A stretch of 64,000 nt of DNA from Patescibacteria group bacterium (GCA_034520665.1 JAXHNJ010000001.1:258579-322578); one strand, 5' to 3'; positions 1-32,880 are shown, numbered from the stretch's first letter. Notes: generated by a model from the letters alone, not told the origin. Made by a program: numbers and translations.

Positions 1-70
1 AATATAAGATCTAATAGAGTAAACCTAGATTTTCAAAATATTATATTATAATAATTAATCAGATAAAATT

Positions 71-439
71 ATGAACATTGAACAAAATCCAGAAAGAATT
101 CAGAAAAAAATGGAGGAAGCAAACGAGGGTGAGAAAAACGAGAGCGAAACCCAAGCTCTTTCGCCTGTTTTAAAGGAAATTAAAGACATGCCTTTAAATT
201 TTAGTGATGAAGAATTCAGAGAAGCGGCTCTTGAGGGCAAAAATGACACAGAAACTTCCCAAGAAGCTTTTGTAAGAACAGTTAAATCTCTTATTGAAGG
301 TAAAGAACCGACAGCTAATACTTGGGGCAGTATGCTTAGAATTTTAGACAGGCCGGCTATGAAAGAGCATCCAAAGCTAGATTTATTTAGAAATGCTATC
401 CATGAATTAGCTGAAAAATACGGAAAGAAGCTAAATTAG
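71..439 (+). CDS. hypothetical cassette-borne protein (122 aa)
   Basis: Intact ORF in the AT-rich island; acidic and hydrophilic; no recognisable motif. Confidence 0.35.
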   Translation: MNIEQNPERIQKKMEEANEGEKNESETQALSPVLKEIKDMPLNFSDEEFREAALEGKNDTETSQEAFVRTVKSLIEGKEPTANTWGSMLRILDRPAMKEHPKLDLFRNAIHELAEKYGKKLN

Positions 440-470
440 AAAAGAAAATATAAATTAATCTGGATGACGA

Positions 471-650
471 TTTTCAGGATTTTTTGAGAAAAGGGGAGTA
501 GGAGAAGAGGTTTTTTTATTGGTAAAAAAAATGGTAAACTATAAACAGTATCGGATTAATATAATGGTTTAATAAAACTTCGTATAATAAACAAATTTGA
601 GGTGATTATACGAAATCAATTCGTATAATTACGAGTTATCGGAAATAATT
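471..650 (+). promoter_or_regulatory. Conserved ~180-bp upstream module (Rep-L) copy 1, containing the perfect palindrome TTATACGAA-ATCAA-TTCGTATAA and -35/-10-like hexamers
   Basis: Near-identical copies at 471-650, 2820-2990, 5783-5925 and 9218-9395. Each lies immediately upstream of a + strand ORF (674, 3010, 5994, 9413). Confidence 0.6.
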
Positions 651-673
651 TTTTATAACTTAAACCAACTATT

Positions 674-1138
674 ATGAATAATCAACAAGATTTGACAATT
701 TTATTAGAAGAGACTTTTCTCAACATTAGAGTTGCAATATTATTAGAAACACCTAGCGGATTTGTTTTTGAGAAATCAAAAGACGGATATATATTTTTAT
801 TGGGCGGAAGAGTTAAATTAAATGAAACAACCCAAGAGGCAGCCTCAAGAGAAATGTTTGAAGAATTAAAATTGGAAAATATAGACATTGAGATGATTTC
901 GGTTATCGAGAATTTTTTTTCAACAGCTGATAATAAAAATATCCACGAAATTAACTTTGTTTATAAAGCAACTCTTCCGCAGTCCATTGATTTAAGTATT
1001 TTTACATCGGACAATGGCAATAACGGTTATTGTTATATTAAAATGGATAAATTTGACAAGCATGATATCAGACCAAAGATTATTAAGGAATTTCTCAAAA
1101 ACAAAAAATCATTTGTACATCTAATAACCCGCGAATAA
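674..1138 (+). CDS. hypothetical protein (154 aa)
   Basis: ORF directly downstream of Rep-L copy 1; no recognisable motif. Confidence 0.4.
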   Translation: MNNQQDLTILLEETFLNIRVAILLETPSGFVFEKSKDGYIFLLGGRVKLNETTQEAASREMFEELKLENIDIEMISVIENFFSTADNKNIHEINFVYKATLPQSIDLSIFTSDNGNNGYCYIKMDKFDKHDIRPKIIKEFLKNKKSFVHLITRE

Positions 1139-1146
1139 AAATTACA

Positions 1147-1292
1147 TCCGATAACAAAGGATATGAGGTTCAAGAAATTCGGCACAAAATATTACCCAAA
1201 GGATGCCAAATTTCTTTCTCTCAAATTTACAAAAATTCAAAATTAATATTCAAAGGTATTTTTGTAAACATCGCATATCCAGAAACGTTATA
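1147..1292 (+). repeat. attC-like imperfect palindromic cassette-boundary repeat
   Basis: 5' arm GATAACAAAGGATATGAGGTTC, inner inverted repeat TTTACAAAAAT/ATTTTTGTAAA, 3' arm CATATCCAGAAACGTTAT. Starts about 10 bp after the stop codon of the preceding ORF. Confidence 0.55.
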
Positions 1293-1378
1293 ATAAATTT
1301 TGAAATAAGCCAAAAAGCCAATGAAGCAAAAAGCCCCATTCGATAAATTAATAAACTTTAATTATTTTTATAAATAAT

Positions 1379-1996
1379 ATGGAAAAGAAAATTCAGATAT
1401 TTATTATTCATGGTGGAATGACTTTCAAAAACAAGACAGACTATTTGCATTATTTAAAAACCAGAAAAATTTTAATTGAGAAAAAAATCCGTTGGACTGA
1501 TGAATTTTTAAAAAAGAATTTAGATAATAATTTTGAAATTATCAAACCACGTATGCCTTTGCAAGATAATGCCAAATATGAAGAATGGAAAATTCATTTT
1601 GAAAGACATATTCCTTGTTTGAAGAATAACATTATATTAATCGGTTCATGCTTAGGAGGAATTTTTCTCGCAAAATACCTGTCTGAAAATAAATTTCCTA
1701 AGAAAATTCTTTCAATTTACTTAATAGCGACTCCCTTTGATGGTTCAAACAGAAAATATATCTCAGGAAAGTTTAATTTAAAATCGGACTTGTCTTTATT
1801 GGAGAAAAATTCCAAAAATCTATATCTAATGTTTTCTAAAGACGATGATGTTGTTCCAGTTTCTCATGCTGAAAAATTCAGAAAAAAACTAAAAAATGCA
1901 AATATAGTAATTTACGAAAGTAAAAATGGCCATTTCAATGTATCTGAATTTCCTGAAATAATAAAAATGATTAAAACAGATGTTAAAAAGAAGTAG
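1379..1996 (+). CDS. alpha/beta-fold hydrolase-like protein (205 aa)
   Basis: IIHGG oxyanion-hole-like motif and a GSCLGG nucleophile-elbow-like motif; family assignment uncertain. Confidence 0.4.
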   Translation: MEKKIQIFIIHGGMTFKNKTDYLHYLKTRKILIEKKIRWTDEFLKKNLDNNFEIIKPRMPLQDNAKYEEWKIHFERHIPCLKNNIILIGSCLGGIFLAKYLSENKFPKKILSIYLIATPFDGSNRKYISGKFNLKSDLSLLEKNSKNLYLMFSKDDDVVPVSHAEKFRKKLKNANIVIYESKNGHFNVSEFPEIIKMIKTDVKKK

Positions 1997-2049
1997 GTCT
2001 TCTTGCTGTTTCTCTATGACGGCTTATTTCAAAACTCTGAAATTTTTCT

Positions 2050-2598
2050 TTGGAACGTTGCACTAAATTTCAGCCCTTCGGGGAATATAACAAGGATTTA
2101 GAAGTTTCGTTCGGTTTCACCTCACTACAACCAAATTTTGCTTCCTCTATTGGTAAAAATAAGGAAGTCGGCAAAACTTCTCATACACGCGAACGTTGGC
2201 TGACATTCATTTTTATCAATATGCAAACACGTGAAGAAACAAAATCTTTTCTCGAAAAAAAATATCCAGAAATTATGAATTCTACTGGTAAAAATTGGGA
2301 TGTAAAAGATGATAAACTAAAAGAGCGGGTATTAGAAAGGTTGACTGATTATTTTCACCCGATAATTGTCAAAAACTTAAAGTCCATTGAAAATACTTTA
2401 GGAAGAGTGAATCAGCGTCGCGAGAATTTTACATTCTTATTTATAGGCGCACTTTTAGGTGTCGTAGGTGGCTTAGTTGCAAATATATTGCATGATTTAC
2501 TAATAAGATTTTCACTAAAATATTATATTATTATCGCTTCAATTATTTTTTTAGCGGTACTTTTGTCTAGTCTTTTATATATTAACTATAAAAAATAA
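2050..2598 (+). CDS. hypothetical membrane protein (182 aa)
   Basis: Two C-terminal hydrophobic helices; no catalytic motif seen. Confidence 0.35.
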   Translation: MERCTKFQPFGEYNKDLEVSFGFTSLQPNFASSIGKNKEVGKTSHTRERWLTFIFINMQTREETKSFLEKKYPEIMNSTGKNWDVKDDKLKERVLERLTDYFHPIIVKNLKSIENTLGRVNQRRENFTFLFIGALLGVVGGLVANILHDLLIRFSLKYYIIIASIIFLAVLLSSLLYINYKK

Positions 2599-2674
2599 CA
2601 TGTCTATACAAAATAACAAAATATTGAATGAATTTCTGGAATATATTAAAAAAAAGTGAACGGCAGCTAACAGC

Positions 2675-2990
2675 GTGTATGAGGTTCAAGAAAAAGTGCG
2701 TTAATAATTTGAAAGAAAACGCTACGAGGGACGCTGCGCTTTCGCTCCACTCCGCTTCGCTCCGCAAAACATCAGATATAGGCAAACCTTGCGCCAGGCC
2801 TCATTTCTTACCAAGAGGATTTTCAGGATTTTTTGAGAAAAGGGGAGTAGGAGAAAAGGTTTTTTTATGGGTAAAAAAAATGGTAAACTATAAACAGTGT
2901 CGGATTATATAATGGTTTAATAAAACTTCGTATAATAAACAAATTTGAGGTGATTATACGAAATCAATTCGTATAATAACTAGTTGTACG
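2675..2990 (+). repeat. attC-like repeat (AACAGCGTGTATGAGGTTC ... CAGATATAGGCAAACC) fused to Rep-L copy 2
   Basis: Sequence identity to the other boundary repeats. The ORF-track CDS 2628..2912 lies inside this repeat and is judged spurious. Confidence 0.55.
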
Positions 2991-3009
2991 AAATTGTTCT
3001 AATTTTCTA

Positions 3010-3249
3010 GTGGTACCTATAGATTTTGATGTGTCAGTAAACAGATACCTGTCAATAGGGTATTTAGCAAAAAAAGAAAGTGCGGAGTTGAAACATTCGT
3101 TGTGGGCATTACAAAGTCCCGAAAACCTAAAAAAACATCATAAAGTTTTTGAGGAGAAATTTGAGTACTTCCGAAAAGTAGGACATAAGGCAAATGTTAA
3201 CGCGGTGAAAGAGTGGTGGGATCAAAAACTTAAGGAATTAAAAAATTAG
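3010..3249 (+). CDS. hypothetical small protein (79 aa, GTG start)
   Basis: ORF downstream of Rep-L copy 2. Confidence 0.3.
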   Translation: MVPIDFDVSVNRYLSIGYLAKKESAELKHSLWALQSPENLKKHHKVFEEKFEYFRKVGHKANVNAVKEWWDQKLKELKN

Positions 3250-3489
3250 AACAACATCGCACAACACCAAATATCTGGCTTGAAAATTTTTCAGTTATTA
3301 GAAAAAACAAGGAGTGAAAAATTTCCGCGCCTAAATTTCGCACTTTTCCGTTTAGTGGTAATTTAGAGTATAATTAATTTAACAATATAATCAGAATATC
3401 AAAGTTTTTAGCACATAAACCAAAGCGCGAAACTTCAGATATTCGGATACGTTATACGCAATTCAGAATTTTATTTTCAAACAATCACA

Positions 3490-3966
3490 ATGATAAAAAT
3501 AATATATGCAACAATTGAAGATTATGATGACTTTCTTGATGTATTCAAGGAGATTGAAGAATATCATAGAGTAAATGCTTCTTGGAAATTTCAAAAACCT
3601 AAACCTGAATTATTTCCAAGAGATTATTTTCATAAAGTAATTGAAGATGAAAATGGTATATTTTTTTTAGCCAAGGATAATACTAAAATTGTTGGTTATT
3701 TAACAGCTTTTGAAGAAAAATCTCCTGATAGGTCCATGTTAAAACTGAGAAAATATATACAGATAGATGATTTATCTGTAAGAAGCGATTATAGAAAAAA
3801 AGGTATCGGTACTTTACTAATGGATAAACTTGAAGAATTGGCTAAAAAAAATAAAATCTATGAAGTGGAGCTTAATGTATGGTGTTTTAACAAAGGTGCA
3901 ATAAAGTTTTATGAAAATAAAGGATATGAATCATTTACTCAGAAAATGAGGAAAGTTTTAAAATAA
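3490..3966 (+). CDS. GNAT family N-acetyltransferase
   Basis: Motif A (R/Q-x-x-G-x-G/A) seen as RKKGIGTLLM, and an FYENKGY C-terminal motif typical of the GNAT fold. Confidence 0.65.
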   Translation: MIKIIYATIEDYDDFLDVFKEIEEYHRVNASWKFQKPKPELFPRDYFHKVIEDENGIFFLAKDNTKIVGYLTAFEEKSPDRSMLKLRKYIQIDDLSVRSDYRKKGIGTLLMDKLEELAKKNKIYEVELNVWCFNKGAIKFYENKGYESFTQKMRKVLK

Positions 3967-4121
3967 AATTTTGAACTTCTCGCTATCGCTCCGTTCGGCT
4001 CGCTTAACAGAAGTATATGCGGTTTGCTCGTTGCCCTTTGCTTTCCCAAATTCTTCACCACGTTTGAAATTTACCTTAAGCCCGATATTAGATCTAATTT
4101 ACAAAACAATTTTTAAATTAT

Positions 4122-4952
4122 ATGGAAAAAAATCTAGAACAATCACAATCTACTAAAAAAATGGAAAAGCCGGAAGATTGGCTGCCAGGGGGGACTGAGC
4201 AAGAACAATATCTCAAAGAACATAAGGAATGGCGGGGTTTAGAAAAACGATTAGGGCAACCGAGGATATTAAATAATGTTTATTTCCCGGAAATTTTAGC
4301 TTGGATTCAAGAAGAATTTAAAGATAATCCTGATGCTTTTTCTTATTTCGAGGCAGGCTGTGGCCACGGAAATGATTTTCGAACCATAAGAAAAGAGCTT
4401 AAGGCTAGAGGCCGCTATCTCGGCGTTGATATGAGTAAGGCAGAAATCATTCACGGGATGAAATTTTATAAAGACGCGGAGGAAGCAAGAAAATTATTTG
4501 CTCAAGGTGATCTTCGTAATTTAAGACATGTTAATATTTGGGATAGGGGAAAAAGAGATTTTTCTCAACCTGTGGAAATTAAAGATGGCGAATTTGATCT
4601 TATCTATATGGAGGCGGTGTTACACGGACTTGGTTATAGTAAAAAAACCTTTCAAGAGAAAAAGGAATCAGCCCAACAGATGCTTAATGAATTATATCGT
4701 ATTTGTAAAGCTGGAGGAAAATTTTTTGGACGAGCCTCCATATTTGGCTCCACCATTACAAAAGAAAAACAATTTGAACTTCTGCGCAAGACAAATAATT
4801 GGCGCTTCATTCCTGAAGCTGAAGAATTTAAAGAAATACTTAAAAAAGCAGGGTTTACAAATATTAAAGGGGCATTGACTCCACATGAAAAAGCAAAAGA
4901 GGATCCAAATAAAAAAGATATTCTGCGATTTTCTTTTTTAGCTGAAAAATAA
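4122..4952 (+). CDS. class I SAM-dependent methyltransferase
   Basis: Motif I EAGCGHGND, then an acidic residue at the end of beta-2 (LGVDMS). Confidence 0.6.
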   Translation: MEKNLEQSQSTKKMEKPEDWLPGGTEQEQYLKEHKEWRGLEKRLGQPRILNNVYFPEILAWIQEEFKDNPDAFSYFEAGCGHGNDFRTIRKELKARGRYLGVDMSKAEIIHGMKFYKDAEEARKLFAQGDLRNLRHVNIWDRGKRDFSQPVEIKDGEFDLIYMEAVLHGLGYSKKTFQEKKESAQQMLNELYRICKAGGKFFGRASIFGSTITKEKQFELLRKTNNWRFIPEAEEFKEILKKAGFTNIKGALTPHEKAKEDPNKKDILRFSFLAEK

Positions 4953-4985
4953 TTTTTTCAGATTAAAAAATGTATTTTGCAAACA

Positions 4986-5090
4986 GTACATAACAAGGTA
5001 TATCTGGTTTCGCTTCTCCTAAGGTTGTCCCTTGATATAAATTTAATACTTCAGATATACGCGAACGTTAATTGCAATTTAGTTTAGGAC
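4986..5090 (+). repeat. attC-like boundary repeat (ATAACAAGGTATATCTGG ... CAGATATACGCGAACGTTAAT)
   Basis: Outer arms are reverse-complementary. An identical copy sits at 8345-8449 inside the segmental duplication. Confidence 0.55.
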
Positions 5091-5134
5091 TTTCTGACAT
5101 AAAATTTATATAATACATAACCCATTTTTTTCTT

Positions 5135-5608
5135 ATGAAGTTTAGAAAATTTAAGAAGAGTGATATTAGACAGATTGCAAAAATTAAGAATTCTGTTTTT
5201 AGTAGTTTCAATAAATCAGAATATTTTGAAAAAGGAACCGTTTCAAAATATTTAAATTACACCAATTCAAAAAAGTCAGACAAAGAACTCCTTGAAGCAT
5301 TTAAGATAACTAAGGATTCTATTTTTTATGTTGCTGAAGAAAATGATAAAATTTTCGGATATATCAAAGGAAGAAAAAATAGAATCGGGAATTTGTTTGT
5401 TCTTGGTCAAAACCATAAAAAAGGGATTGGTAGAAAATTAGTTAATTTATTTGAAAAAGAAGCAGAAAAACAGAACTCTAAAGAAATTAAGATTCACTCT
5501 TCAATTTATGCAGTTCCTTTCTATCAAAAAAGGGGTTATAAGAAAACTACTGGAATTAGAAATCTTCATGGCTTGAAGATTCAACCAATGAAAAAAGTCC
5601 TAAACTAG
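5135..5608 (+). CDS. GNAT family N-acetyltransferase (paralog 1 of 2)
   Basis: HKKGIGRKLV motif A. 98% identical to the ORF at 8494..8967. Confidence 0.65.
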   Translation: MKFRKFKKSDIRQIAKIKNSVFSSFNKSEYFEKGTVSKYLNYTNSKKSDKELLEAFKITKDSIFYVAEENDKIFGYIKGRKNRIGNLFVLGQNHKKGIGRKLVNLFEKEAEKQNSKEIKIHSSIYAVPFYQKRGYKKTTGIRNLHGLKIQPMKKVLN

Positions 5609-5993
5609 ACTTCTTCGAAATTTTTTCAGAATTCCTCGACCCCGCTGCGCTCTCGCCTATGGCTCGGGGTAATTAACAGGATTTTAACGGAAAAATACTC
5701 GGCTCGCATTTTCCCAAATCGCCTACGGCAAAACTTCTCTAAATCCTGAAGTTGTGCAAGACCCCATTTCTTGCCAAGAGGATTTTCAGGATTTTTTGAG
5801 AAAAGGGGAGTAGGGGAAGAGGTTTTTTATTGGTAAAAAAAATGGTAAACTATAGACAGTATCGGATTATATAATGGTTTAATAAAACTTCGTATAATAA
5901 CGAGTTAAGTGAAATTGAGAATTTGTCCTATGAGATTTAAATGGGCACGATTTTTTCCGAAAACTTTATATCACTACATACTTTTATTAATTT

Positions 5994-6470
5994 ATGATGG
6001 ACATAATCAAAATAAGCGAAGATTTCGCAAAAAAAGAATATGCAAAGCATGATGAACTTCACCAATGGAATCATGTTGAAGATGTGATGAATGTGGCTTT
6101 GAAATTATCCGAGTTTCATCCAGAAGCAAATTTAGAAATTTTAAAACTTGCTGTTATCTTTCATGATATTAGTTATGAACAATATGAAACTCATGTTGAA
6201 GAGTCCATGAAAGTAGCAGAAAAATTTCTAAAAGAGCAGGATTATCCGGAAGATAGAATCAAGAAAGTTTTGCAAGTGATGATTTCTCATTCTGGCCCTC
6301 ACAGAAGAAAACTCGGTGAAGCAAAAATGATTGAGGGAAAAATCATTTATGATTCTGATAAATTCCATCTTGCAAAAACTAGAGAGGGATTTGAAAAATA
6401 TTTTGATAGATTTTATCTGGATGAAACTCGTGATATGATTAAAAAAACGTGCCCTGAATTCTTTAAATAA
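5994..6470 (+). CDS. HD-domain phosphohydrolase
   Basis: H...HD motif (HDELHQWNHVED ... IFHDISY). Confidence 0.55.
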   Translation: MMDIIKISEDFAKKEYAKHDELHQWNHVEDVMNVALKLSEFHPEANLEILKLAVIFHDISYEQYETHVEESMKVAEKFLKEQDYPEDRIKKVLQVMISHSGPHRRKLGEAKMIEGKIIYDSDKFHLAKTREGFEKYFDRFYLDETRDMIKKTCPEFFK

Positions 6471-6708
6471 ATGTAAACTTGACGGACAAATTCTCAACTT
6501 GCTCACTATCGTTCGCACCACGCTGCGCTCTCACTTCGTTCGACCCTCATTTAACAAGGGATAAAAGGAAAATTGCTCGGCTCGCAATTTTCCCAAATTT
6601 TCTCCACTACGTTCTGAAAACTTCTTTTATCCCTGATGTTATATGAAATAAATTTTGGCGCGCTAGAAAAAAACCTTAATAAACAAATTCCCCCTAAGTA
6701 TTATTAAC

Positions 6709-7368
6709 ATGAAAAAATCTAAACTTCTCTGGTATATTTTAACAATAGTCCCAATCGCATTATTAATTCTTGGATATATTTTTCCCTCATCATTCTTTGG
6801 AAGTCAAGAGGCAATTAGAGATTTTGTTTCTCAATTTGGAATTTTTGCCCCTCTTGCCTTCATTGTGCTTCAAATCCTGCAAGTTGTAGTAACGCCCCTT
6901 AGTCATTATACTGTTTCAATAGCGGGCGGATTTATTTTTGGAACATGGCAAGGTTTTATTTATAATTGGATTGGTAGAGTAATTGGAACAGCAATCGCTT
7001 TTTATCTTGCTCGAATTTTTGGAAGAAAAATTATTAAGCATCTTGTTAAAAAAGAAACTATCCAAAAATACGATTATATATTTGAAAAAGGAAAACTCTT
7101 ACTGTTCTTAGCATATTTCTTGCCATTGTTCCCAGATGATGAACTTTCATATCTTGCAGGACTTTCAGCAATTAGTCCAAGAATCTTTTTACCTTTAATG
7201 GCGATTGGGCATATTAGTGGAAGTTTAAGTTTAGCTTACATCGGCAACGGGATACAATCTTTCAAAGAGCCGATGTTTATAATACTCTCATTAATAACTT
7301 TAATTGGGGGAATTTGGTTTGCATGGCATTATCAAAAAGTTAAAAATAATGCTAATACCAAAGTGTAA
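6709..7368 (+). CDS. DedA/TVP38/TMEM64 family membrane protein
   Basis: Multi-TM protein with a G-x-x-x-FG...F-x-P...S-x-AG-like signature (GGFIFG ... LAGLS). Confidence 0.6.
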   Translation: MKKSKLLWYILTIVPIALLILGYIFPSSFFGSQEAIRDFVSQFGIFAPLAFIVLQILQVVVTPLSHYTVSIAGGFIFGTWQGFIYNWIGRVIGTAIAFYLARIFGRKIIKHLVKKETIQKYDYIFEKGKLLLFLAYFLPLFPDDELSYLAGLSAISPRIFLPLMAIGHISGSLSLAYIGNGIQSFKEPMFIILSLITLIGGIWFAWHYQKVKNNANTKV

Positions 7369-7627
7369 GATGCGCGCCAAAATTTATTTCACAAAACGGG
7401 CGGGCAAGGAGTTAGAAGAACAAGCTAGAAAAAATCTTAAAAGAGAATTAGCAATGTTGTCGTAAAAATTTTTCTTAACATCAACTAATACTGTGTATCT
7501 GGTTCCACAAATGAGAAATAATTGATTATTTTTTACATTCTTGGTTGCCCTTTTACAATTTTATAAAAGAGAAAGGCCGAGTCCCGCAAATCTGCGAAAC
7601 CCGGCCGAATGGATGGGGGCGGGGCTT

Positions 7628-7798
7628 TCAATACCAGCCCGCGTCTCCTGCTTCCTTAATTTGCTGCGCCTTGGTCTTTACTTCCTGAAGAGCCTTAAGC
7701 ACCTTTGGGTCGTCCTTGTACTTCTCATCGAGTTGGTTGAGGAGATACAGGATTTCCCCTGCTGCCGTGGATGCTCCTACTCCGCTAATCATATTCAT
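7628..7798 (-). CDS. small hypothetical protein (56 aa) with strong Shine-Dalgarno sequence, on a GC-rich insert
   Basis: Minus-strand ORF MNMISGVGASTAAGEILYLLNQLDEKYKDDPKVLKALQEVKTKAQQIKEAGDAGWY, preceded by GGAGGTG. Local GC about 50% against about 30% in flanks. The overlapping + strand ORF 7541..7903 looks like a translation artefact. Confidence 0.35.
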   Translation of the reverse strand: MNMISGVGASTAAGEILYLLNQLDEKYKDDPKVLKALQEVKTKAQQIKEAGDAGWY

Positions 7799-8095
7799 TG
7801 CGCACCTCCAATGTTCACGACATATTATCCTAGCAGATTATGCCCTGCCTGTCAAGCTAACAAATCTTTAAAAATTGTAAAAATCCCTAAAGTTAGGGTA
7901 TAATAATAAAGAATTTCTCATTTGTTCCACCTAAATTCTCATTTCGTATTGTGCTGGCGCTCTGCGCAATTTTATCACCTACATACACTCGTGACTTCGC
8001 ATACGCATGTCTGTTAGATGAAATAATAAAAAAATTCTTAACTATTGATAAATAATAAAATTTAACAATAATATTAACACTAGCAATACAAACTT

Positions 8096-8311
8096 ATGAA
8101 AAATTTTGAAAAAAACATTGGCCAAGGAGAAAGTTTATTAGAATTAGCCGCAAAAAAACTTAATTTAGATCCAAAAAACACCTCGTTAAATGAAGTAGAG
8201 GCAGTTATGCTTGGATTGCCAAAAGAAAGTTCCGTTTATGAGGTTGAAAAAGCAAAAGAGGATCCAAATAAAAAAGATATTCTGCGATTTTCTTTTTTAG
8301 CTGAAAAATAA
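8096..8311 (+). CDS. hypothetical protein; the last 20 aa are identical to the C-terminus of the methyltransferase at 4122..4952 (chimeric ORF at a duplication junction)
   Basis: C-terminus KAKEDPNKKDILRFSFLAEK is shared. The duplication breakpoint falls inside the ORF. Confidence 0.3.
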   Translation: MKNFEKNIGQGESLLELAAKKLNLDPKNTSLNEVEAVMLGLPKESSVYEVEKAKEDPNKKDILRFSFLAEK

Positions 8312-8493
8312 TTTTTTCAGATTAAAAAATGTATTTTGCAAACAGTACATAACAAGGTATATCTGGTTTCGCTTCTCCTAAGGTTGTCCCTTGATATAAA
8401 TTTAATACTTCAGATATACGCGAACGTTAATTGCAATTTAGTTTAGGACTTTCTGACATAAAATTTATATAATACATAACCCATTTTTTTCTT

Positions 8494-8967
8494 ATGAAGT
8501 TTAGAAAATTTAAGAAGAGTGATATTAGACAGATTGCAAAAATTAAGAATTCTGTTTTTAGTAGTTTCAATAAATCAGAATATTTTGAAAAAGGAACCGT
8601 TTCAAAATATTTAAATTACACCAATCCAAAAAAGTCAGACAAAGAACTCCTTGAAGCATTTAAGATAACTAAGGATTCTATTTTTTATGTTGCTGAAGAA
8701 AATGATAAAATTTTCGGATATATCAAAGGAAGAAAAAATAGAATCGGGAATTTGTTTGTTCTTGGTCAAAACCATAAAAAAGGGATTGGTAGAAAATTAG
8801 TTGATTTATTTGAAAAAGAAGCAGAAAAACAGAACTCTAAAGAAATTAAGATTAACTCTTCAATTTATGCAGTTCCTTTCTATCAAAAAAGGGGTTATAA
8901 GAAAACTACTGGAATTAGAAATCTTCATGGCTTGAAGATTCAACCAATGAAAAAAGTCCTAAACTAA
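8494..8967 (+). CDS. GNAT family N-acetyltransferase (paralog 2 of 2)
   Basis: Differs from 5135..5608 by three substitutions (S45P, N104D, H130N). Confidence 0.65.
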   Translation: MKFRKFKKSDIRQIAKIKNSVFSSFNKSEYFEKGTVSKYLNYTNPKKSDKELLEAFKITKDSIFYVAEENDKIFGYIKGRKNRIGNLFVLGQNHKKGIGRKLVDLFEKEAEKQNSKEIKINSSIYAVPFYQKRGYKKTTGIRNLHGLKIQPMKKVLN

Positions 8968-9007
8968 ACTTCTTCGAAATTTTTTCAGAATTCCTCGACC
9001 CCGCTGC

Positions 9008-9084
9008 CTGCCCGCCATAGTCTACGGCATCAGGCCTTGGCTCGCCCGCCTGAGTTGCTCAGGCAAGTCGGGCGGCAGGCGGGC
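9008..9084. repeat. 77-bp GC-rich palindromic insertion (REP/MITE-like) present in only one copy of the duplicated repeat
   Basis: CTGCCCGCC...GCCTGAGTTGCTCAGGC...GGCAGGCGGGC has terminal and internal inverted repeats. The paralogous position 5647/5648 is uninterrupted. Confidence 0.6.
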
Positions 9085-9412
9085 GCTCTCGCCTATGGCT
9101 CGGGGTAATTAACAGGATTTTAACGGAAAAATACTCGGCTCGCATTTTCCCAAATCGCCTACGGCAAAACTTCTCTAAATCCTGAAGTTGTGCCAAACCC
9201 CATTTTTTGCCAAGAGGATTTTCAGGATTTTTTGAAACAAGGGAAGTAGGAGAAGAGGTTTTTTTATTGGTAAAAAAAATGGTAAACTATAGACAGTGTT
9301 GGATTAATATAATGGTTTAATAAAAATTCGCATAATAAACAAATTTGAGGTGATTATACGAAATCAATTCGTATAATAACGAGTTATCGGAAATAAAAAT
9401 AGTAAAATTTTT

Positions 9413-9973
9413 ATGGGTAATAAAAAAATCTTCACAATCAGCTCTGATTTTGAATTAATTAAAAAACCAAAATGGTTAGATGGCTTTCGTATTAAGCACG
9501 ATAAACCTTTTCCATATCACGTAACTTTAAAAACATGTACATACTTTGATATTGATAATTTTAAAAATTTAAAAAAAGACTTAAGTGGTATTGTTAAAAA
9601 ATATAGCGAGATCAAGGTTATATTTAACAAACTTTTTATAAGTCGCTCTTCAAAGGGCGAATGTATTATGATAAAAGCAGATAATAATAAAAAGCTAAAT
9701 GAACTCCAGAAGGAAATTGTGAAAAAGTTTTCAAAATATGGGAATTATATAGCGAAAAAATACGAAAAATTCGAGAAAAGTTTTATTCCCCATATTACTA
9801 TCGCGCGACATCTTTCATCAGAACAATTGATAATTGCAAAAAAGGATTTAGGGAAAAAACTATTTTGTGAAGCTGTAGTCAAAGGGCTTTCTTTAATGAT
9901 AGTGGAAAATAATACTGATGAAGAATGGTTAAACCACAACAATAAAAGTTATTACAAGTTACAGAACAAATAG
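9413..9973 (+). CDS. 2H phosphoesterase superfamily protein (LigT/2'-5' RNA ligase-like)
   Basis: Two H-x-T/S-x motifs (YHVTLK and PHITIA) about 90 aa apart. Confidence 0.55.
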   Translation: MGNKKIFTISSDFELIKKPKWLDGFRIKHDKPFPYHVTLKTCTYFDIDNFKNLKKDLSGIVKKYSEIKVIFNKLFISRSSKGECIMIKADNNKKLNELQKEIVKKFSKYGNYIAKKYEKFEKSFIPHITIARHLSSEQLIIAKKDLGKKLFCEAVVKGLSLMIVENNTDEEWLNHNNKSYYKLQNK

Positions 9974-10157
9974 AATTTTACTATTTTTACCTTCCGATAA
10001 CAGCGTGTATGCGGTTCGGACTTTCCCTGAAAACCCTCTCCCATATTTTTGCTCCCGTTGGTCGCAAAAACATCGCATACGCTGGAACGTTAAGTGAAAT
10101 TGCGGAGGGGCGCCTAATACGATACTTTTTATAAGTGAGTGAATTTACAATACTATT

Positions 10158-10832
10158 ATGACAACAAAACTTCGCGAACCAGATGAAGAAAATTATGTCT
10201 TTACCGAGGGTATTGATTATTCAAAAACAGAAAAAAAATTTATCTGGGGAACTGGTGATAAAGACACTCTGGAGCTTCTGAATGATATTAAAATTCGAGG
10301 CAAGTGGCTAAACCTTGCCGCTGGTGATGGACGTTACAATTTGAATTTGTTGGAAAAAGTTAATTCAGTTGTTGCTTCAGATATTGATGAAGGTGCGCTT
10401 GGCAAATTGAAACAAAACACACCTAACGAACTAAGAGAAAAACTACAAACAGAAATTTTTGATATAACTAAACCATTTCCATTTGAAGATGAATCATTTG
10501 ACGGTGTGTTTTGCACTGGGACATTACATCTTTTTCCAACTGAAATTTTGCAGCAAATTATTTTAGAGATTGATAGAATTCTAAAATCCAATGGCAAACT
10601 GATTATAGACTTTGCAACTGACATCAAACGTATTCTGCCAGATGGCAAACTTTATATCAGAAAATCTGAACCTCAATACACTGCCGAAGAAGCCGCAAAA
10701 TTTCTCAGAGAATTATTGCACAATTATCAAATTCAAATTGTAGAATCAGAAGTTCCAGAGGAAGAAATTAAGACGCGAGGTTTTGTTTATAGATTTAGTT
10801 GTAAATTCATTTTACTAACAGCAGATAAATAA
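10158..10832 (+). CDS. class I SAM-dependent methyltransferase
   Basis: Motif I LNLAAGDGRYN, then VVASDID (acidic residue at the end of beta-2). Confidence 0.6.
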   Translation: MTTKLREPDEENYVFTEGIDYSKTEKKFIWGTGDKDTLELLNDIKIRGKWLNLAAGDGRYNLNLLEKVNSVVASDIDEGALGKLKQNTPNELREKLQTEIFDITKPFPFEDESFDGVFCTGTLHLFPTEILQQIILEIDRILKSNGKLIIDFATDIKRILPDGKLYIRKSEPQYTAEEAAKFLRELLHNYQIQIVESEVPEEEIKTRGFVYRFSCKFILLTADK

Positions 10833-11172
10833 TGACGGCGACCCCCACAACTCTCGCCAGCCCTTCGGGACGTTGCACTAAATTTTTGCCCTTCGGGACA
10901 TATAACAAGGGATATGAGGTTACGAAGTTTTGCAGACTTCTTTACTCAAATTCGCCTACGGCGAACTTCTCATAAGCCCGATGTTAAATGAAATTTTGCC
11001 TTGAAATGTGAAGTGAAAAATATTCGTGCTATTAAAAAAAGATAGTTCGTAATTTCAAAATTTATTTTATTTATCGGCAAAACTTCACTTAACACTGTGT
11101 ATCTGGTTCCGTAAAAGAGAAAAATTAAATAATTCTCTATTTTTAAAAGCCTTTTTTCAATTTTTTTACAAA

Positions 11173-11200
11173 GAAAAAACCAGTTGTTAGGGACAACTGG
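11173..11200 (-). terminator. Rho-independent terminator for the minus-strand gene 11217..11591
   Basis: Minus strand reads CCAGTTGTCCCTAACAACTGG followed by a T-run: an 8-bp stem plus TTTTTTT. Confidence 0.55.
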
Positions 11201-11216
11201 AAAACCCTTATTTTGT

Positions 11217-11591
11217 TTAGAGGACTGCGTAGTACGGCATTCCGCCAGGCAGGGCTGACCACATGGCACGCGGCATAAGGCATTTGGCCTTGCCGATCGC
11301 GGTGCCGAGTTGAAAGAGCTGGTCCATGCGTTGGTGCAGATCTGTCCACTGATTGCCATGCTTGTCGTTACAGGCATTCAAAAAGGACGTGCCGCCACCA
11401 CCGGACATCTTGAACTCGTCGGGTAATTCATCCAGTATTTCCTCAATCTCGGCCTTATGGCTTTCCAGTCTGTCGGTATGAAAACCAACATTCTGGGTTA
11501 TACCCTCGGCTTTGACATAATTGTTGGTTTCCTCATCTTCTTTGAACAGACAGTCTATGAAGATTGCATTTACGCGTTCGGGATCAATCAT
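11217..11591 (-). CDS. hypothetical protein (124 aa), compositionally foreign (higher GC), minus strand
   Basis: ORF has its own terminator and sits inside a split boundary repeat. GC about 47%. No motif recognised. Confidence 0.45.
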   Translation of the reverse strand: MIDPERVNAIFIDCLFKEDEETNNYVKAEGITQNVGFHTDRLESHKAEIEEILDELPDEFKMSGGGGTSFLNACNDKHGNQWTDLHQRMDQLFQLGTAIGKAKCLMPRAMWSALPGGMPYYAVL

Positions 11592-11907
11592 CTTCGTTCC
11601 TCCTTTGTTAAGGTTATCAGCAAAATTACTGATTATTAAGTATGGCAGATTTCTTATTTCATGTCAAGCTTGGCGACCAAAAAATTGAAAAAAGGGCTTT
11701 AATAGCTTTAATATAAGGTAAATTATTATTTTTTCTCTTTTACTTCACCCAAATTGTTCGTTCCTCGCAAATTCTCATAATCCTAACGTTATGTGAAATA
11801 GCCAGAAATTTCTTAATTATTTTTTAAGATTTTTTTGGCAATTTATTTCACGTCGAACATAACTTGTGGTATAATTTAGTCAGTTTAATTAATTAACCAA
11901 TAAAACT

Positions 11908-12207
11908 ATGTCAGAAAAATTCGAAGGCAATTTGCCACCTCAAGAGCAAAAAGAAGGTTATTCAGCAGATTTCGTAGCCAAGGTAAAAGAAGTATTTCCA
12001 GATTGGGATCGCATGAATCAAGCGCTGGAATCTGGTAGTGAGTGGGTCGGTCGTTATCTTGATGATTCGCGCGGTTTTTCAATGAAGCCAGATGAAATTG
12101 TCCAAGCTCTTGAAGGCGGCGATCAAGAAAAAGTTCTTGAGGCGGCAAGGAAAGCCAAAAAGATTGATGAGCTTTATAAAGAATGGTCTGAATCACGGGA
12201 AAAATAA
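11908..12207 (+). CDS. hypothetical acidic protein (99 aa)
   Basis: Preceded by an extended -10 promoter: TTCACG, 17 nt, TGgTATAAT at about 11850-11878. The + strand frame looks more protein-like than the overlapping minus-strand frame. Confidence 0.4.
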   Translation: MSEKFEGNLPPQEQKEGYSADFVAKVKEVFPDWDRMNQALESGSEWVGRYLDDSRGFSMKPDEIVQALEGGDQEKVLEAARKAKKIDELYKEWSESREK

Positions 12208-12256
12208 ATTGCCAAAAAATAATAATAAGGAATAGAAATTTCTGTCAACATCACAT

Positions 12257-12400
12257 AACAGCGTGTATCTGGTTCGGCAAATTTGACACAATTAGATTCA
12301 AAAGGAATGTCAAATCTACCTCTCCCAAATTTCGCAAAAAAATACTATTTTTAAAGGAATTTTTGCGAAACTTCAGATACACGCAAACGTTATACGCAAT
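12257..12400 (+). repeat. attC-like boundary repeat, the best-preserved copy
   Basis: Outer arms ATAACAGCGTGTATCTGGTTCGG ... CTTCAGATACACGCAAACGTTATACG. Two inner inverted repeats: AAATTTGACA/TGTCAAAT and TTTCGCAAAAA/TTTTTGCGAAA. Confidence 0.6.
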
Positions 12401-12589
12401 TCAAAAAATATTTTTTTTATAAGGAATTTTGACAGGCTTTTTAAAAAGGGGAATAAATTTGTTTTTTTATTAATTAGAAAGGGGTAAATGGTGTTTTCTC
12501 CGCTATCGCTCCGAAAACGATTTATTATTGGAAAAAGACAAAAAGTTTTATATACTTAAATTAGTTTTAACTTATTAAAGGATTAAAAT

Positions 12590-15337
12590 ATGAGTGAAGA
12601 ATTACTACAAAGAGGACTAACTAAAAAAGGAATTACATTCATAGATTATGAATTTTTTCCGTTACACTCAACGACCTTAAAACAATATAAAAAGTTAAAA
12701 ATAATTCCTAATAAAGATTATGATAAATATGAAATTAGAAAACCTGACGGGCTTTTAGTAGACAGAGGAAATAAATCAAAGCCGAAAGTTGTTACAGTTT
12801 TGGAATACAAAAAACCTTCTGAATTTCAAACAGATAAACAAAAAAGAGAAGCGATTGAACAATGCAATGATTTGTGTCAAGAGCTTGAAGCAAAAATAGG
12901 AATTATTACAGACGGAATTGTTACTTATTGGATAAATCCAAACCACGCAGATAAAAATAACAAATACAAAGATAGAACAACTGGGAAGAAGCGAAGTTTT
13001 TCTTATATCTTAAATGATGATAAGCAAAGATTACAAAAGAAGTTTTTCATTAAAGAGAACGATAAAAAAGATATTTCAAAATTGAATAATGAAACAAGAG
13101 AAACTTACAGATTAGTTAAAAGAATTTTAGAAGAAACAAATAATAAAAATTCTGTTTTGAAAGCAACAGAAAAAACAGACCCAACCCCTCTCGCGAGAAG
13201 TGTTTGGCAAAGTATTTACATAAGCACAAAAGATAATCCAACAGCTTGTCTTTATAATGTTGTTGAGATTTTTATCTTTAAGTTTCTGAGTGATTTAGGA
13301 GTTTTAAAAGGAGTTAATAGTTTTGATTATTTATTGAAACTTTACAAAACAGAAGATAGTAAAACAGTTTTAAAACACTATGCTAAAACTTGCAGAGAAG
13401 AAATAAGAAATTTATTTGAAGCGGGAGATGACGGGACAACAATAATTAATGGAACTATTTTTGTAAATAAAGACGGAAGCCCTGTTTTATCACAAGCGAC
13501 TTTATTTAAAGACACTATTGAAAAATATGCAAAGTTTGGAGATTTAAAAAATATTGACAAGGGATTTAAAACAAAATTGTTCGAAACATTTTTGAAGCAG
13601 AGTAAGGACAAAAGTAAGTTAGGACAATTTTTTACACCGAGAAAAGTTGTTAAGGGAATTGTTGAAATGGCTGATGTGGATAAAGCGGAATTTATATGCG
13701 ACCCATTTTGCGGTGTTGGTGGTTTTCTTTTAGAGCCATTTCAAATATCTCAAAATTTGAAAAATAAATTTATTCCAAAGAATAATGAAATAAATCCGCC
13801 TGTAAAACTTTTAGGATATGATACAGGAAGAGAAGATAACGACGAACAAAAGAGGACTATTATTTTAGCAAAGGCGAATATGCTTATTTATTTGTCTGAT
13901 TTAGTCGAAAAAAATTCTACATTAAACGAGGAATTTTCAAAAATAATAAATAATACTTTCCACTTTTTATCGGATAGTAATCTTGGAACACTAAAAGAAA
14001 CTGAAAGATTTGAAAGAAATGAGGATAAGCCTGATTTAATTATTACCAATCCTCCATATATCACAAGCGGAGTAACTACAATAAGAAAACAGATTGAGGA
14101 AGATGGTTTAACTGATTATTATAAAAATAGTGGAAAGGGAATGGAAGGTTTATGCTTAAAATGGATAATAAAAAATTTGAAAAGAAAAGGACAAGCATTT
14201 ATTGTTTTGCCAGATAGTATTTTTAATGTTTTTGCCAATAAAGTTTTAAGAGATGAAATAAAAAAGAATTGTTATATTAATTGTATTATATCTTTACCCG
14301 CAAAAACTTTCTTTAATACTCCAAAGAAAACTTATGTTTTAGGAATTACAAAAAAAGATTGTGATGAAGATGAATGTGAAAATCTTAAACAGGATTTTCC
14401 TGTATTCACTTATTTAGTTTCTAATATCGGGGAAACATTAGATATTAACCGATTCGAAATTCCTGAAAATGATTTGGATAATGCGAAGAATTTGTTTAAT
14501 CAATTTAAAGGAAGTCCAAATAATTTTCAAACAGATGACTCACGATGTAAATTACAACCTATTGAAAAATTTGAAAATGAGAAATATTGGATAATTGATA
14601 AATGGTGGAGTAAAAAAGAAAAAATAGAAATTGAAATTGAAGAAGAAGATGAAAGTTTAACTATTGATGAATTTAAAGATCAAATTGAAAAAACAAAGGA
14701 AAAATTAGGAGAATTAGAATGGGTGGCAGATAAAACAAAAGAGAGAAAATATAAAACCAAAATGATGTATGTAACGGATGATAAGATAAATAAAAATAGG
14801 AAAGAAGAAGGAATTTTTGAAGCAGAAAAAGGAAATGCAAAATACACAAAAAAATATATGCACGACCATAAAGGTGAGTTTCCTGTTTATTCTTCTCAAA
14901 CTTCTAATTTAGGCGAGATAGGAAGCATAGACACCTATGATTATGAAGAAGAATGTTTTACTTGGACAACCGATGGAACTTATGTTGGAACTGTTTTTTA
15001 TAGAAATGGTAAGTTTTCAATAACCACTCATTGCGGAATTTTAAGAGTTAAACCAGAATACAAAGATAAAGTTGATTTTGAATATTTGAATTTTATCTTA
15101 AATCAAACACTCCCTAATTATAAATTAGGTGAAGGTTCTAATAAAAGATTAGGGACTGAAAGAATGAAGGAAATTCAAATAGAAATCCCAATAAACAAAA
15201 ACGGAGAATTTGACTTAGATAAACAAAAAGAAATTGCTGAAAAGTATAAGAAAATAGAAGAAATCAAGGAAAAACTTAAAGACAATTATGAAAAGATGAT
15301 AAATTCAAAAGTTCAGATTATTGAAGCAGAAGAATAA
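12590..15337 (+). CDS. Type IIG (MmeI-like) single-chain restriction-modification enzyme: N-terminal PD-(D/E)xK nuclease, gamma-class N6-adenine methyltransferase, C-terminal target-recognition region
   Basis: N-terminal KPDGLLVD...VLEYKK matches PD...ExK. Methyltransferase motif I FFTPRKVV...DPFCGVGGFL. Motif IV ITNPPY. The 915-aa length matches MmeI architecture. Confidence 0.7.
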   Translation: MSEELLQRGLTKKGITFIDYEFFPLHSTTLKQYKKLKIIPNKDYDKYEIRKPDGLLVDRGNKSKPKVVTVLEYKKPSEFQTDKQKREAIEQCNDLCQELEAKIGIITDGIVTYWINPNHADKNNKYKDRTTGKKRSFSYILNDDKQRLQKKFFIKENDKKDISKLNNETRETYRLVKRILEETNNKNSVLKATEKTDPTPLARSVWQSIYISTKDNPTACLYNVVEIFIFKFLSDLGVLKGVNSFDYLLKLYKTEDSKTVLKHYAKTCREEIRNLFEAGDDGTTIINGTIFVNKDGSPVLSQATLFKDTIEKYAKFGDLKNIDKGFKTKLFETFLKQSKDKSKLGQFFTPRKVVKGIVEMADVDKAEFICDPFCGVGGFLLEPFQISQNLKNKFIPKNNEINPPVKLLGYDTGREDNDEQKRTIILAKANMLIYLSDLVEKNSTLNEEFSKIINNTFHFLSDSNLGTLKETERFERNEDKPDLIITNPPYITSGVTTIRKQIEEDGLTDYYKNSGKGMEGLCLKWIIKNLKRKGQAFIVLPDSIFNVFANKVLRDEIKKNCYINCIISLPAKTFFNTPKKTYVLGITKKDCDEDECENLKQDFPVFTYLVSNIGETLDINRFEIPENDLDNAKNLFNQFKGSPNNFQTDDSRCKLQPIEKFENEKYWIIDKWWSKKEKIEIEIEEEDESLTIDEFKDQIEKTKEKLGELEWVADKTKERKYKTKMMYVTDDKINKNRKEEGIFEAEKGNAKYTKKYMHDHKGEFPVYSSQTSNLGEIGSIDTYDYEEECFTWTTDGTYVGTVFYRNGKFSITTHCGILRVKPEYKDKVDFEYLNFILNQTLPNYKLGEGSNKRLGTERMKEIQIEIPINKNGEFDLDKQKEIAEKYKKIEEIKEKLKDNYEKMINSKVQIIEAEE

Positions 15338-15625
15338 ACTTTTGAATAAGGAGTTTTGAAAAATGGAATTCACCCCTAACCCCCGCCCGCCTCGCTACGC
15401 GAAGCGTTGCGGGCAGGCCTCTGCCCAAAATTCAAAACGGGAAAAATCAAATTTATAAGAATTAAAGAAAGTCTATCATGAAGAATAAGAACGAAAAATA
15501 TTTTTTGAACTCACTCCGCTTTGCTCCGCAAAACATCAAATATAGGCAAACCTTGTGCCAGACCTCATTTCTTGTCAAGAGGATTTCCAGGACTTTTTAA
15601 GAAAATGAAATTAATTTATTAAAAT

Positions 15626-31851: not shown

Positions 31852-32160
31852 ATAATTTAAATTCTTAAAATATGGTATTACTAAATATTATTTCTGGGTA
31901 GGCGAAAGCCCTCGCTTTTGCCATACTTTGATGCTTAAAACATTTTCTATGACTGGCAAAATTTTTAATTATCTCTCTACTCTGGGTACTGCCCGATCCT
32001 CAGATTGGGCCGGCTTTCCAGCCGAATCTGAGGATTCGGCCTACCCGACTAGTTTTAGAAAGAAAAGAAAATATTCAGTCTGGATGAATGATTTTTACGA
32101 TTTTAATATCTATTCCGAGCATAAATTTAATAATAGAAATTAATAGACTATAAAAAAAAC

Positions 32161-32610: not shown

Positions 32611-32880
32611 AAGGGCAAAGTAATTTTATACAAAATAATAATTTTGTCAAGTATTTTTTGGCTACCAAGCTTATTTTTGGCTAATATTAGTTTATTAATA
32701 TCTAAATTCTAAACAAATTTTAAATTACAATATTTTAAACTATAAATTATTTTGATTTTTCGAGAATAGAACCAAATACTTTCATAAGTTTTGTAGATTC
32801 GTTGATTAGTATATTTTTTTTCTCCCACTTGTTGATTTATAGGATTAGTTAACCTTTTTATTATCAACAAAAAGATATCT

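Follow-up and report, generated by a model that had tools for sequence, protein, structure and literature searches.

We analysed a stretch of 64,000 nucleotides (nt) from a Patescibacteria group bacterium (GCA_034520665.1, JAXHNJ010000001.1:258579-322578), hereafter the window, which carries near its left end a conserved non-coding module in four copies, each followed by an unrelated gene. The analysis indicates that each module is probably a complete attI-type site of an integron-like gene-capture system, found mainly in metagenome-assembled genomes (MAGs) of the candidate phyla radiation (CPR)/Patescibacteria. Judged from its sequence, the module would consist of attI together with about 100 nt that normally lie upstream of such sites. 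An IntI-like tyrosine recombinase encoded outside the window would bind the boxes named A1, A2 and A3 and the R box. Strand exchange between G and TT (written G/TT, the slash marking the crossover) would then insert incoming cassettes directly to the right of the module, which would explain the unrelated gene after each copy. Four such sites would give the 15-kb array four separate entry points, one for each of the sub-arrays (units of 2.3-6.4 kb) into which they divide it. An earlier note on this DNA had described a shared cis-acting module in front of unrelated cassettes and a dimer-type site, and on both points it was right, since the inverted repeat has the form of a site for two inverted protein subunits.

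Architecture of the module and its relatives

A repeat finder, a MAFFT alignment and a blastn comparison of the array with itself all placed the module at 469-646, 2818-2994, 5781-5900 and 9217-9396, as had been claimed, with an identity between copies of 92-97% over 121-180 nt. The homology of copies 2 to 4 extends about 30 nt further to the left, to 2789, 5752 and 9188. The palindrome TTATACGAA-ATCAA-TTCGTATAA was found without mismatches at 606-628, 2954-2976 and 9354-9376 (expected count 0 in 100 dinucleotide-preserving shuffles), and its full extent is a 10-5-10 inverted repeat, ATTATACGAA / TTCGTATAAT. Copy 3 is without 41 nt that include the palindrome, so the loss reported for this copy was also borne out; the deleted stretch lies exactly between the direct repeats CTTCGTATAATAAAC and ATTCGTATAATAAC, and the deletion left a single hybrid repeat. 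As for the genes that follow the copies, described as two hypotheticals, an HD hydrolase and a 2H phosphoesterase, the last two were confirmed after copies 3 and 4, and the open reading frame (ORF) after copy 1 proved to encode a NUDIX hydrolase (Pfam, E=6e-8).

Within its last 70 nt or so, the module has four box-like elements, A1, A2, A3 and the R box, whose sequences fit the arm consensus of the recombinase. Relative to A3, the spacing of A1 is 41 nt and that of A2 is 14 nt in copies 1, 2 and 4, and A2 and A3 together make up the perfect palindrome, which is probably formed by two half-sites for recombinase binding. The module ends in ATTCGTATAATAACGAG/TTATCGGAAAT, with the crossover at G/TT. 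The homology between the copies runs to this point (...AACGAG or ...AACTAG) and then diverges into TTATCGG in copies 1 and 4, TTGTACG in copy 2 and TTAAGTG in copy 3, followed by unrelated cassettes. These R-box variants double as R' boxes of attC, the site type of the cassettes, within the window and in other genomes. All four copies therefore have what distinguishes an attI, a constant left half that ends at G/TT and a variable, cassette-derived right part. The folding pattern of an attC was not found in the module: our attC model matches the stretch from A1 to A2 at only 16 bits (E of about 0.6), and inspection of the sequence upstream of A2 revealed no R'' complementary to the module's R box.

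To the extent of the sequences compared, the module as a whole is specific to the source organism. The exact 23-mer GGTAAAAAAAATGGTAAACTATA had 0 matches in genome contigs and in metagenome contigs, and for the 5' 90 nt or so an nhmmer search with the four-copy profile found no detectable homologue, other loci matching the attI part only. The attI part has many relatives, which are cited here by L numbers. The pattern of the attC 5' arm, TAACAGCGTGTATNNGGTTC, retrieved more than 120 genome contigs, all with full attC structure and mostly from CPR/Patescibacteria MAGs, together with some archaeal MAGs and some contigs labelled Gammaproteobacteria. Nineteen of the 8-kb related loci encode a full-length integron integrase homologue (tblastn), and these 19 are laid out as in a canonical integron, every attC being downstream of the integrase gene and on the other strand. 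The integrase-proximal junction of the related loci, located between the start codon of the integrase and the first cassette, has the consensus TTCGYATAnAAAC-NAG/TTRnnnGAAAT.

The module end, ATTCGTATAATAACGAG/TTAT, has 21 nt (ATTCGTATAATAACGAGTTAT) that are identical (21/21) in L090 and L034; L090 is a Roizmanbacteria MAG in which the matching site adjoins the integrase gene. The 35 nt GGTGATTATACGAAATCAATTCGTATAATAACGAG match the intI-adjacent site of L125 at 30 of 35 positions, and the A3 simple site of copy 1 is identical or nearly identical to the intI-adjacent sites of L090, L034 and L125. In metagenome contigs the 19-mer core TTCGTATAATAACGAGTTA occurs at one site each in 100 contigs: in 30 of them the other strand carries an IntI homologue whose start is about 90-100 nt upstream of the site, and in 28 the site is too near the contig end for integrase adjacency to be judged. 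Homologous sites thus lie between an integrase gene and the first cassette in at least 14 of the 18 intI-bearing genome loci and in 30 metagenome contigs. The earlier note had favoured a transcription regulator as the effector; since at least 44 other contigs have these boxes immediately next to an IntI-like gene, and since the homology ends at G/TT, a tyrosine recombinase is the likelier one.

The accessory boxes recur in the family as well. A direct repeat of the L box resembling A1 lies 40-42 nt upstream of A3 in 58 of the 103 distinct related sites, compared with about 1% at random positions, and an inverted half-site lies 12-14 nt upstream in 22 of the 103. Conservation of the palindrome in orthologous loci, proposed earlier as a check, therefore holds for part of the family: the palindrome plus core is also present in L125, L032, L090, L196 and L142, with the inverted half-site just upstream in L032, L125, L196 and L142. 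A 16-mer common to the module and L186 (TTTTGAGAAAAGGGGA) is within chance expectation and was not used.

No second genuine site was detected among the 114 related loci with a site, 42 of which have at least 3 kb of downstream sequence. L205 appeared to be another locus with several sites, and was rejected since its extra match falls in a coding region and is spurious. An attC 3' half 130-180 nt upstream of the site was seen in the window only, among the related loci compared. We also looked at what lies upstream of the core in the 42 contigs without an adjacent integrase (among L129-L221), and found a tRNA 3' end in L135 and L174, a recJ-like gene in L186 and L210, and a cassette-like ORF with a strong outward promoter in L147 and L209.

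The cassette array and the origin of the copies

The modules are part of an integron-type array of small genes (table below), whose left end may be at copy 1 or before the start of the window. According to Pfam the array encodes a NUDIX hydrolase, an alpha/beta hydrolase, two GNATs plus a duplicate, methyltransferases, an HD protein, a VTT protein, a 2H phosphoesterase and a fused restriction-modification (RM) methylase, kinds of gene that are common in, and typical of, integron cassettes. Between the genes are imperfect inverted repeats that start with ATAAC or TTAAC and end with GTTAnnnGAAAT. We built an attC covariance model from 18 sites of other genomes and five sites of the window; in its stems 89% of the cells are paired, compared with at most 50% for slid partners, and compensatory changes occur in six pairs. 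Run without filters, the model found nine sites at E<0.01, every one on the plus strand within 1144-12400 and none in the remainder of the 64 kb. Four of these nine matches are outside the training set, two of the four being near-exact duplicates of training sequences. Hairpins of the R''-L''...L'-R' type thus follow each other in one orientation over 11 kb, an attC cluster in the sense of IntegronFinder. A rule-based finder that demanded R''/R' complementarity was too strict and blind to strand, and was replaced by the covariance model; a short hidden Markov model of the attC 3' half had little power and was used qualitatively only.

Coordinates of the array, the module copies, the boxes and the attC sites in the window
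Feature	Position	Strand	Remarks
Integron-type cassette array, resembling a cluster of attC sites lacking integron-integrases (CALIN-like)	1-15605	+	Small genes separated by attC sites and four modules; Pfam, attC model
Copy 1 (c1), putative attI-type site	469-635	+	Without the first ~29 nt of copies 2-4; crossover G635/T636; then NUDIX cassette
Box A1 (CTTCGTATAATAAAC)	578-592; also 2926-2940, 9326-9340	+	Repeats the L box in direct orientation; starts 41 nt upstream of the start of A3
Box A2 (GATTATACGAAAT)	604-616; also 2952-2964, 9352-9364	+	Inverted half-site in R-box orientation; left arm of the palindrome
Box A3 (L box, TTCGTATAATTAC; 620-632), then GAG/TT and R box (GTTATCGGAAAT)	620-646	+	Simple site of copy 1; crossover between 635 and 636
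attC after NUDIX cassette	1144-1298	+	27.2 bits, E=0.004; not used for model building
Copy 2 (c2)	2789-2983	+	Left end at crossover-equivalent C2788/T2789 of preceding degenerate attC; right G2983/T2984; then 79-aa ORF 3010-3249
attC	4983-5078; duplicate 8342-8437	+	62 bits; 4983-5078 in training set, duplicate not
attC with R' box GTTGTGC	5666-5762; duplicate 9102-9198	+	28.9 bits, left boundary of copy 3; duplicate bounds copy 4, 30.6 bits
Copy 3 (c3)	5752-5904	+	Crossovers G5751/T5752 and G5904/T5905; A1 and A3 fused (5889-5901); A2 and palindrome deleted; then HD cassette
attC after HD cassette	6544-6649	+	49.5 bits; in training set
Copy 4 (c4)	9188-9383	+	Crossovers G9187/T9188 and G9383/T9384; then 2H phosphoesterase cassette
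attC after 2H cassette	9990-10100	+	R' box GTTAAGTGAAAT, same as R box ending copy 3; 65.6 bits; training set
attC after methyltransferase 10158-10832	10895-10994	+	52.1 bits; in training set
attC, long type	12248-12400	+	61.8 bits, E=4e-10; not used for model building
Copy 5 (c5), partial	15553-15605	+	First 53 nt of the module only; after degenerate attC 3' half at right end of array

The left boundaries of the copies also fall on crossovers. Copies 3 and 4 start right after the G of the R' box GTTGTGC, and copies 2 and 5 start after the equivalent position of a different, degenerate attC (CCTTGYGCC), so that the left homology of copy 2 with copies 3 and 4 begins at the crossover position of two different attCs. 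By their sequence, copies 2 to 4 have the form of an ORF-less cassette of about 196 nt whose attachment site is attI instead of attC. Copy 1 begins 30 nt after ORF 71-439, with no attC between them, and copy 5 is followed by a metallo-beta-lactamase-fold gene and then by ordinary chromosomal genes. Identity as a miniature inverted-repeat transposable element or an insertion sequence (IS) was rejected, as there are no terminal inverted repeats and no target duplications and both ends are integron crossovers.

When the array is cut at the module starts, it falls into units (U1 to U4) of 2.3, 3.0, 3.4 and 6.4 kb with the module first in each. Self-blastn showed that the 3' ends of the units are paired, U1 with U4 over 70 nt at 91% and U2 with U3 over 763 + 134 nt at 98-99% identity. 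The module-proximal parts differ; in U2 and U3 this applies to everything upstream of the common block. This block starts inside a methyltransferase ORF and must therefore result from a rearrangement that was not site-specific. Copy 1, without its first 29 nt, and copy 5, without all that follows nt 53, stand at opposite ends of the array and overlap by 24 nt. The copies most likely multiplied either by tandem duplication of units of attI plus cassettes or by re-insertion of the 196-nt ORF-less attI cassette. Tandem duplication through end-repeat recombination, with later change beside each attI, and re-insertion would fit the data equally well.

A bolder version of the re-insertion model, which we consider rather improbable, is that of a mobile attI cassette. 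A unit of about 196 nt, from the TT after one crossover to the next G, would be excised as a circle with a complete attI, its junction reading ...TAATAACGAG/TTGTGCC..., and dropped into any attC. The system would then be an undescribed integron-like class of CPR bacteria and some archaea, with an integrase without the IntI additional domain and an attI core conserved nearly to the base across phyla. If true, mobile attI cassettes would seed new points of capture, and possibly of expression, inside arrays.

Several other features of the array were recorded. The 79-aa ORF after copy 2 has homologues with 65-75% identity in three CPR contigs (L071, L009, L077). These belong to arrays of Uhrbacteria, Magasanikbacteria and Peregrinibacteria, where the reading frame seems to be longer upstream, and the ORF of the window may be truncated at its 5' end at the attI junction. 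Two regions, 7463-8020 and 11067-11800, carry small minus-strand genes of 56 aa (7628-7798) and 124 aa (11217-11591). Each has its own promoter-like site and terminator and is located between the attC 5'-arm-like TAACACTGTGTATCTGGTTCC and a distant R' box; these genes could be cassettes in reverse orientation or insertions into attC. The attC region after the duplicated GNAT contains a G+C-rich palindromic insertion of about 76 nt (9008-9082) that is missing in its twin at 5648, which is otherwise 98-99% identical. At the end of the array is its largest unit (12590-15337), which encodes a 915-aa fusion of an N6-methylase with a specificity subunit (type I/IIG-like RM) and is located between the attC at 12248-12400 and the degenerate attC that precedes copy 5.

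The window outside the array is ordinary chromosome, with UPF0182, AbiE, a Na/Pi transporter, LexA, DinB and SSB, and no tRNA gene was found in the 64 kb. The G+C content of 33% and the taxa with which the organism has its attC and attI types in common suggest that it belongs to the CPR. A 149-nt unit is present in three tandem copies and one dispersed copy (31256-31707 and 31976-32122), with the G+C-rich hairpins CCCGATCCTCAGATCGGG and CCGAATCTGAGGATTCGG and no Rfam match. These units lie in or adjoin an ORF whose C-terminus, YIHNNPVKAKIV...YKWSSY, resembles transposases associated with repetitive extragenic palindromic (REP) sequences or of the IS200 type. Just downstream of lexA, a stretch made up of the 5' end of dinB (impB/mucB family) and the sequence upstream of it occurs about 2.4 times in succession, the period being about 123 nt (32842-33182). 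Additionally, there are two-copy repeats of 180-280 nt with 84-96% identity (38766-39042/40472-40748, 55501-55710/55992-56201 and 36553-36731/37502-37680), which are probably paralogous gene starts.

Evidence against an active attI and alternative explanations

Several observations weigh against the identification of the modules as attI sites. A tblastn search for IntI homologues detected no integrase gene or remnant in the 64-kb window, and no copy is located there between an integrase gene and the first cassette, the position by which an attI is recognised. The recombinases that adjoin the related attI sites are of about 270 aa (L090, L017, L114, L010, L032 and others; for example L090:681-1553, minus strand). 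TIGR02249 is their best or near-best match, with the XerA/XerC/XerD models scoring close behind, and their scores on it are 215-244 bits, below the cut-off of 265, with the match in two stretches. They also appear to be without about 45 aa that align with IntI1 193-250 and cover the IntI-specific additional domain. The presence of this domain is regarded as a defining trait of integron integrases (Messier & Roy 2001, cited in PMC9668308), and it was found neither in the window, which has no integrase, nor in the recombinases of the related loci, which score below the cut-off. The mechanism may thus differ from that of textbook integrons. We call the system integron-like because the array and the layout of the site agree with an integron and the integrase does not; the 270-aa recombinases that head canonical attC arrays may represent a distinct integron-like class in CPR bacteria and archaea. 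Nor is integrase adjacency universal, since 42 of the 72 assessable metagenome contigs carry the core without an adjacent integrase, and the core site could have a wider role. The array has been heavily rearranged: several attCs are chimeric or degenerate, and one breakpoint of a duplication lies within the methyltransferase ORF at the start of the U2/U3 block. Some or all of the copies may be inert duplication products. Finally, the array is known from one assembly; an independent short-contig Logan assembly of the same organism (SRR26473340) breaks at every module and neither confirms nor contradicts the order. ORF 71-439 matched no record, so no sequence upstream of the window was recovered, and other cassette proteins were found only on short Logan contigs of SRR26473340.

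The modules might instead be true attI homologues that are now inert, by-products of tandem duplication or unequal crossing-over in a decaying array without integrase. We regard this as possible, though less likely than not. It would agree with the missing intI, with the loss of A2 and one direct repeat from copy 3, with the degenerate attCs that have C for G at the crossover before copies 2 and 5, and with the non-site-specific start of the U2/U3 block, and the partial copies at the two array ends with their short overlap are the pattern expected from end-repeat recombination. However, copies 1, 2 and 4 have all their boxes intact at exact spacing, and a different cassette starts exactly at G/TT after each copy, with a family-typical R box, which implies at least three separate exchanges. 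An integrase could also act in trans, and the 42 related sites just mentioned are likewise without an adjacent intI. An assembly artefact, in which a single attI and cassettes that vary between strains would have been joined into a false tandem, is highly unlikely. The sequence probably comes from a metagenome assembly, and the independent contigs do break at each module, but the copies differ by 3-8%, including insertions and deletions. Moreover, copies 2 to 4 are preceded by cassette attCs instead of an integrase, and there are two different left junctions, unlike in collapsed or misjoined repeats.

The remaining explanations place the function of the module in gene expression. Transcription of the distal cassettes may restart at the module, which would then mainly be an internal promoter or a mobile promoter cassette without an ORF, with the boxes as no more than its attachment site; this we find rather doubtful. 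Crossovers at both ends of copies 2 to 4 give them the form such a cassette would have. In the related family, the 120 nt upstream of the core are enriched for sigma-70-like promoters directed towards the cassettes, with 32% scoring at least 10/12 compared with 4-5% on the opposite strand or at random positions, and clear cases are TTGACA-16-TATAAT in L135 and TTGATA-16-TATAAT with an upstream TG in L147. The promoter-like hexamers that had been pointed out in the module itself do not stand up as well: A1 and A3 each contain a TATAAT that belongs to the recombinase-box consensus TTCGTATAAT, and a third, at 560-565, is located outside the boxes and conserved in each of the four copies but has no -35. 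The best sigma-70 match in the copies (-35 and -10 hexamers with a spacing of 16-18 nt), 8-9/12, is at the background of random positions, and the module is not among the 77 promoter-like sites of our scan (65 expected by chance). The consensus does apply to this organism, because its lexA promoter fits it (a good TTGACG-17-TATAAT); by analogy with the related family, we consider a weak promoter in the module plausible. Control of the module by LexA was rejected, as the GTTCG repeats of the lexA promoter are missing from it. An operator through which a dimeric transcription factor co-regulates four cassettes, the main idea of the earlier note, is very improbable. A perfect 10-5-10 inverted repeat upstream of four genes would suit it, yet the arms are the consensus arm of the array's own recombination sites (compare the attC R' box GTTATACGCAAT at 3450 and 12388), and the same arrangement stands beside integrase genes in other genomes. 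The palindrome has no further copy in the rest of the 64-kb window, for example before any regulator gene, and the inverted half-site is kept in only 22 of the 103 related sites. A cis-acting leader RNA, attenuator or riboswitch-like, would draw on the mutually exclusive A1:A2 and A2:A3 hairpins that appear in both DNA and RNA folding (z-scores -2.3 to -3.8), but we think it extremely unlikely. Rfam 15 gave 0 hits at gathering thresholds in the whole window and only chance-level ones (E>1) in 1-16.5 kb, with nothing that matches the module up to E=5; the second hairpin is not followed by a U-tract, and copy 3 does without the element. The related sites conserve the sequence and spacing of the boxes and not their pairing, A3 being constant and A2 variable, and the homology stops at a DNA crossover. 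Four near-identical copies have no power for covariation, and we found no positive evidence for the leader RNA that had been suggested. A possible 17-codon leader peptide after GGAGAAGAGG was discarded, since its frame is not kept in copies 2 and 3.

Significance and comparison with known systems

The identification as attI sites would change the annotation of this region from a promoter, operator or RNA to a concrete and testable recombination site. One attI per platform, as the entry and expression point for the cassettes, is a basis of integron biology; if the four sites are complete attI, arrays can have several entry points and perhaps several expression points. Our comparison also defines to the base the attI of a widespread and essentially unannotated integron-like family of CPR/Patescibacteria and some archaeal MAGs, TTCGYATAnAAAC-NAG/TT with a direct repeat 41 nt upstream. 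This signature is directly searchable and marks array starts that current tools miss, because attI is unmodelled outside class 1 and the associated integrase fails the IntI-specific test. Among the papers searched, none dealt with integrons of CPR bacteria.

In the paradigm attI1, L and R boxes are accompanied by the direct repeats (DR1, DR2), and the crossover lies in G/TTRRRY (PMC12901181). The module has, as far as its sequence tells, the same kind of organisation: a double-strand site with an inverted L/R pair, extra arm repeats upstream and a G/TT crossover. As in attI of integrons, the left half is constant and the right half comes from the inserted cassette, and the related loci place the site between the integrase gene and the first cassette. 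On the other hand, there is no sequence similarity to attI1, attI2 or attI3. Unlike known attI, this site has long arms that are almost symmetrical (in some relatives TTCGTATAA-N7-TTATACGAA) and, as accessory repeats, a direct one (about 41 nt) and an inverted one (about 14 nt); four copies occur in one array, none of them beside an integrase here. Inverted arms of about 9-11 bp around a short spacer are shared with the core sites of Xer/dif and Cre/loxP, and the associated recombinases score nearly as well on XerA/XerC/XerD as on the integron integrase model; the arm AACTTCGTATA presumably resembles the loxP arm. In contrast to those systems, the right arm is variable and derived from the cassette, and the site heads an array of attC-bounded cassettes beside a recombinase gene instead of lying at the replication terminus.

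Integrons "typically have one" attI, and attI is poorly described outside class 1 (PMC9024848). In none of the other loci examined did we find a second such site or an attC immediately upstream of the site, and the nearest parallel is found in the rare attI-type cassettes of class 1 and 2 integrons. Like ORF-less cassettes and cassette-borne promoters, copies 2 to 4 are short non-coding units bounded by crossovers and positioned to drive distal cassettes, but their recombination site is attI-like and not a folded attC, and the promoter consensus does not rise above background. The rare delta-attI-type cassettes of class 1 and 2 mobile integrons include a cassette flanked on either side by a full 65-bp attI1, as well as a 244-nt attI2 fragment, and were shown to be recombination-proficient (PMC12901181). 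In these cassettes attI-derived sequence stands inside an array, as in the window, and replaces attC at the 3' end of a cassette. This may also be the layout of copy 1, where ORF 71-439 leads without an attC into the module, the ORF being either a cassette or chromosomal flank. The delta-attI-type cassettes are mostly remnants of 14-18 nt in clinical mobile integrons, whereas the modules described here are full-length, with all accessory boxes, and present four times. Copies 2 to 4, moreover, are ORF-less units that follow a normal attC in the chromosomal array of an uncultivated, probably CPR, bacterium.

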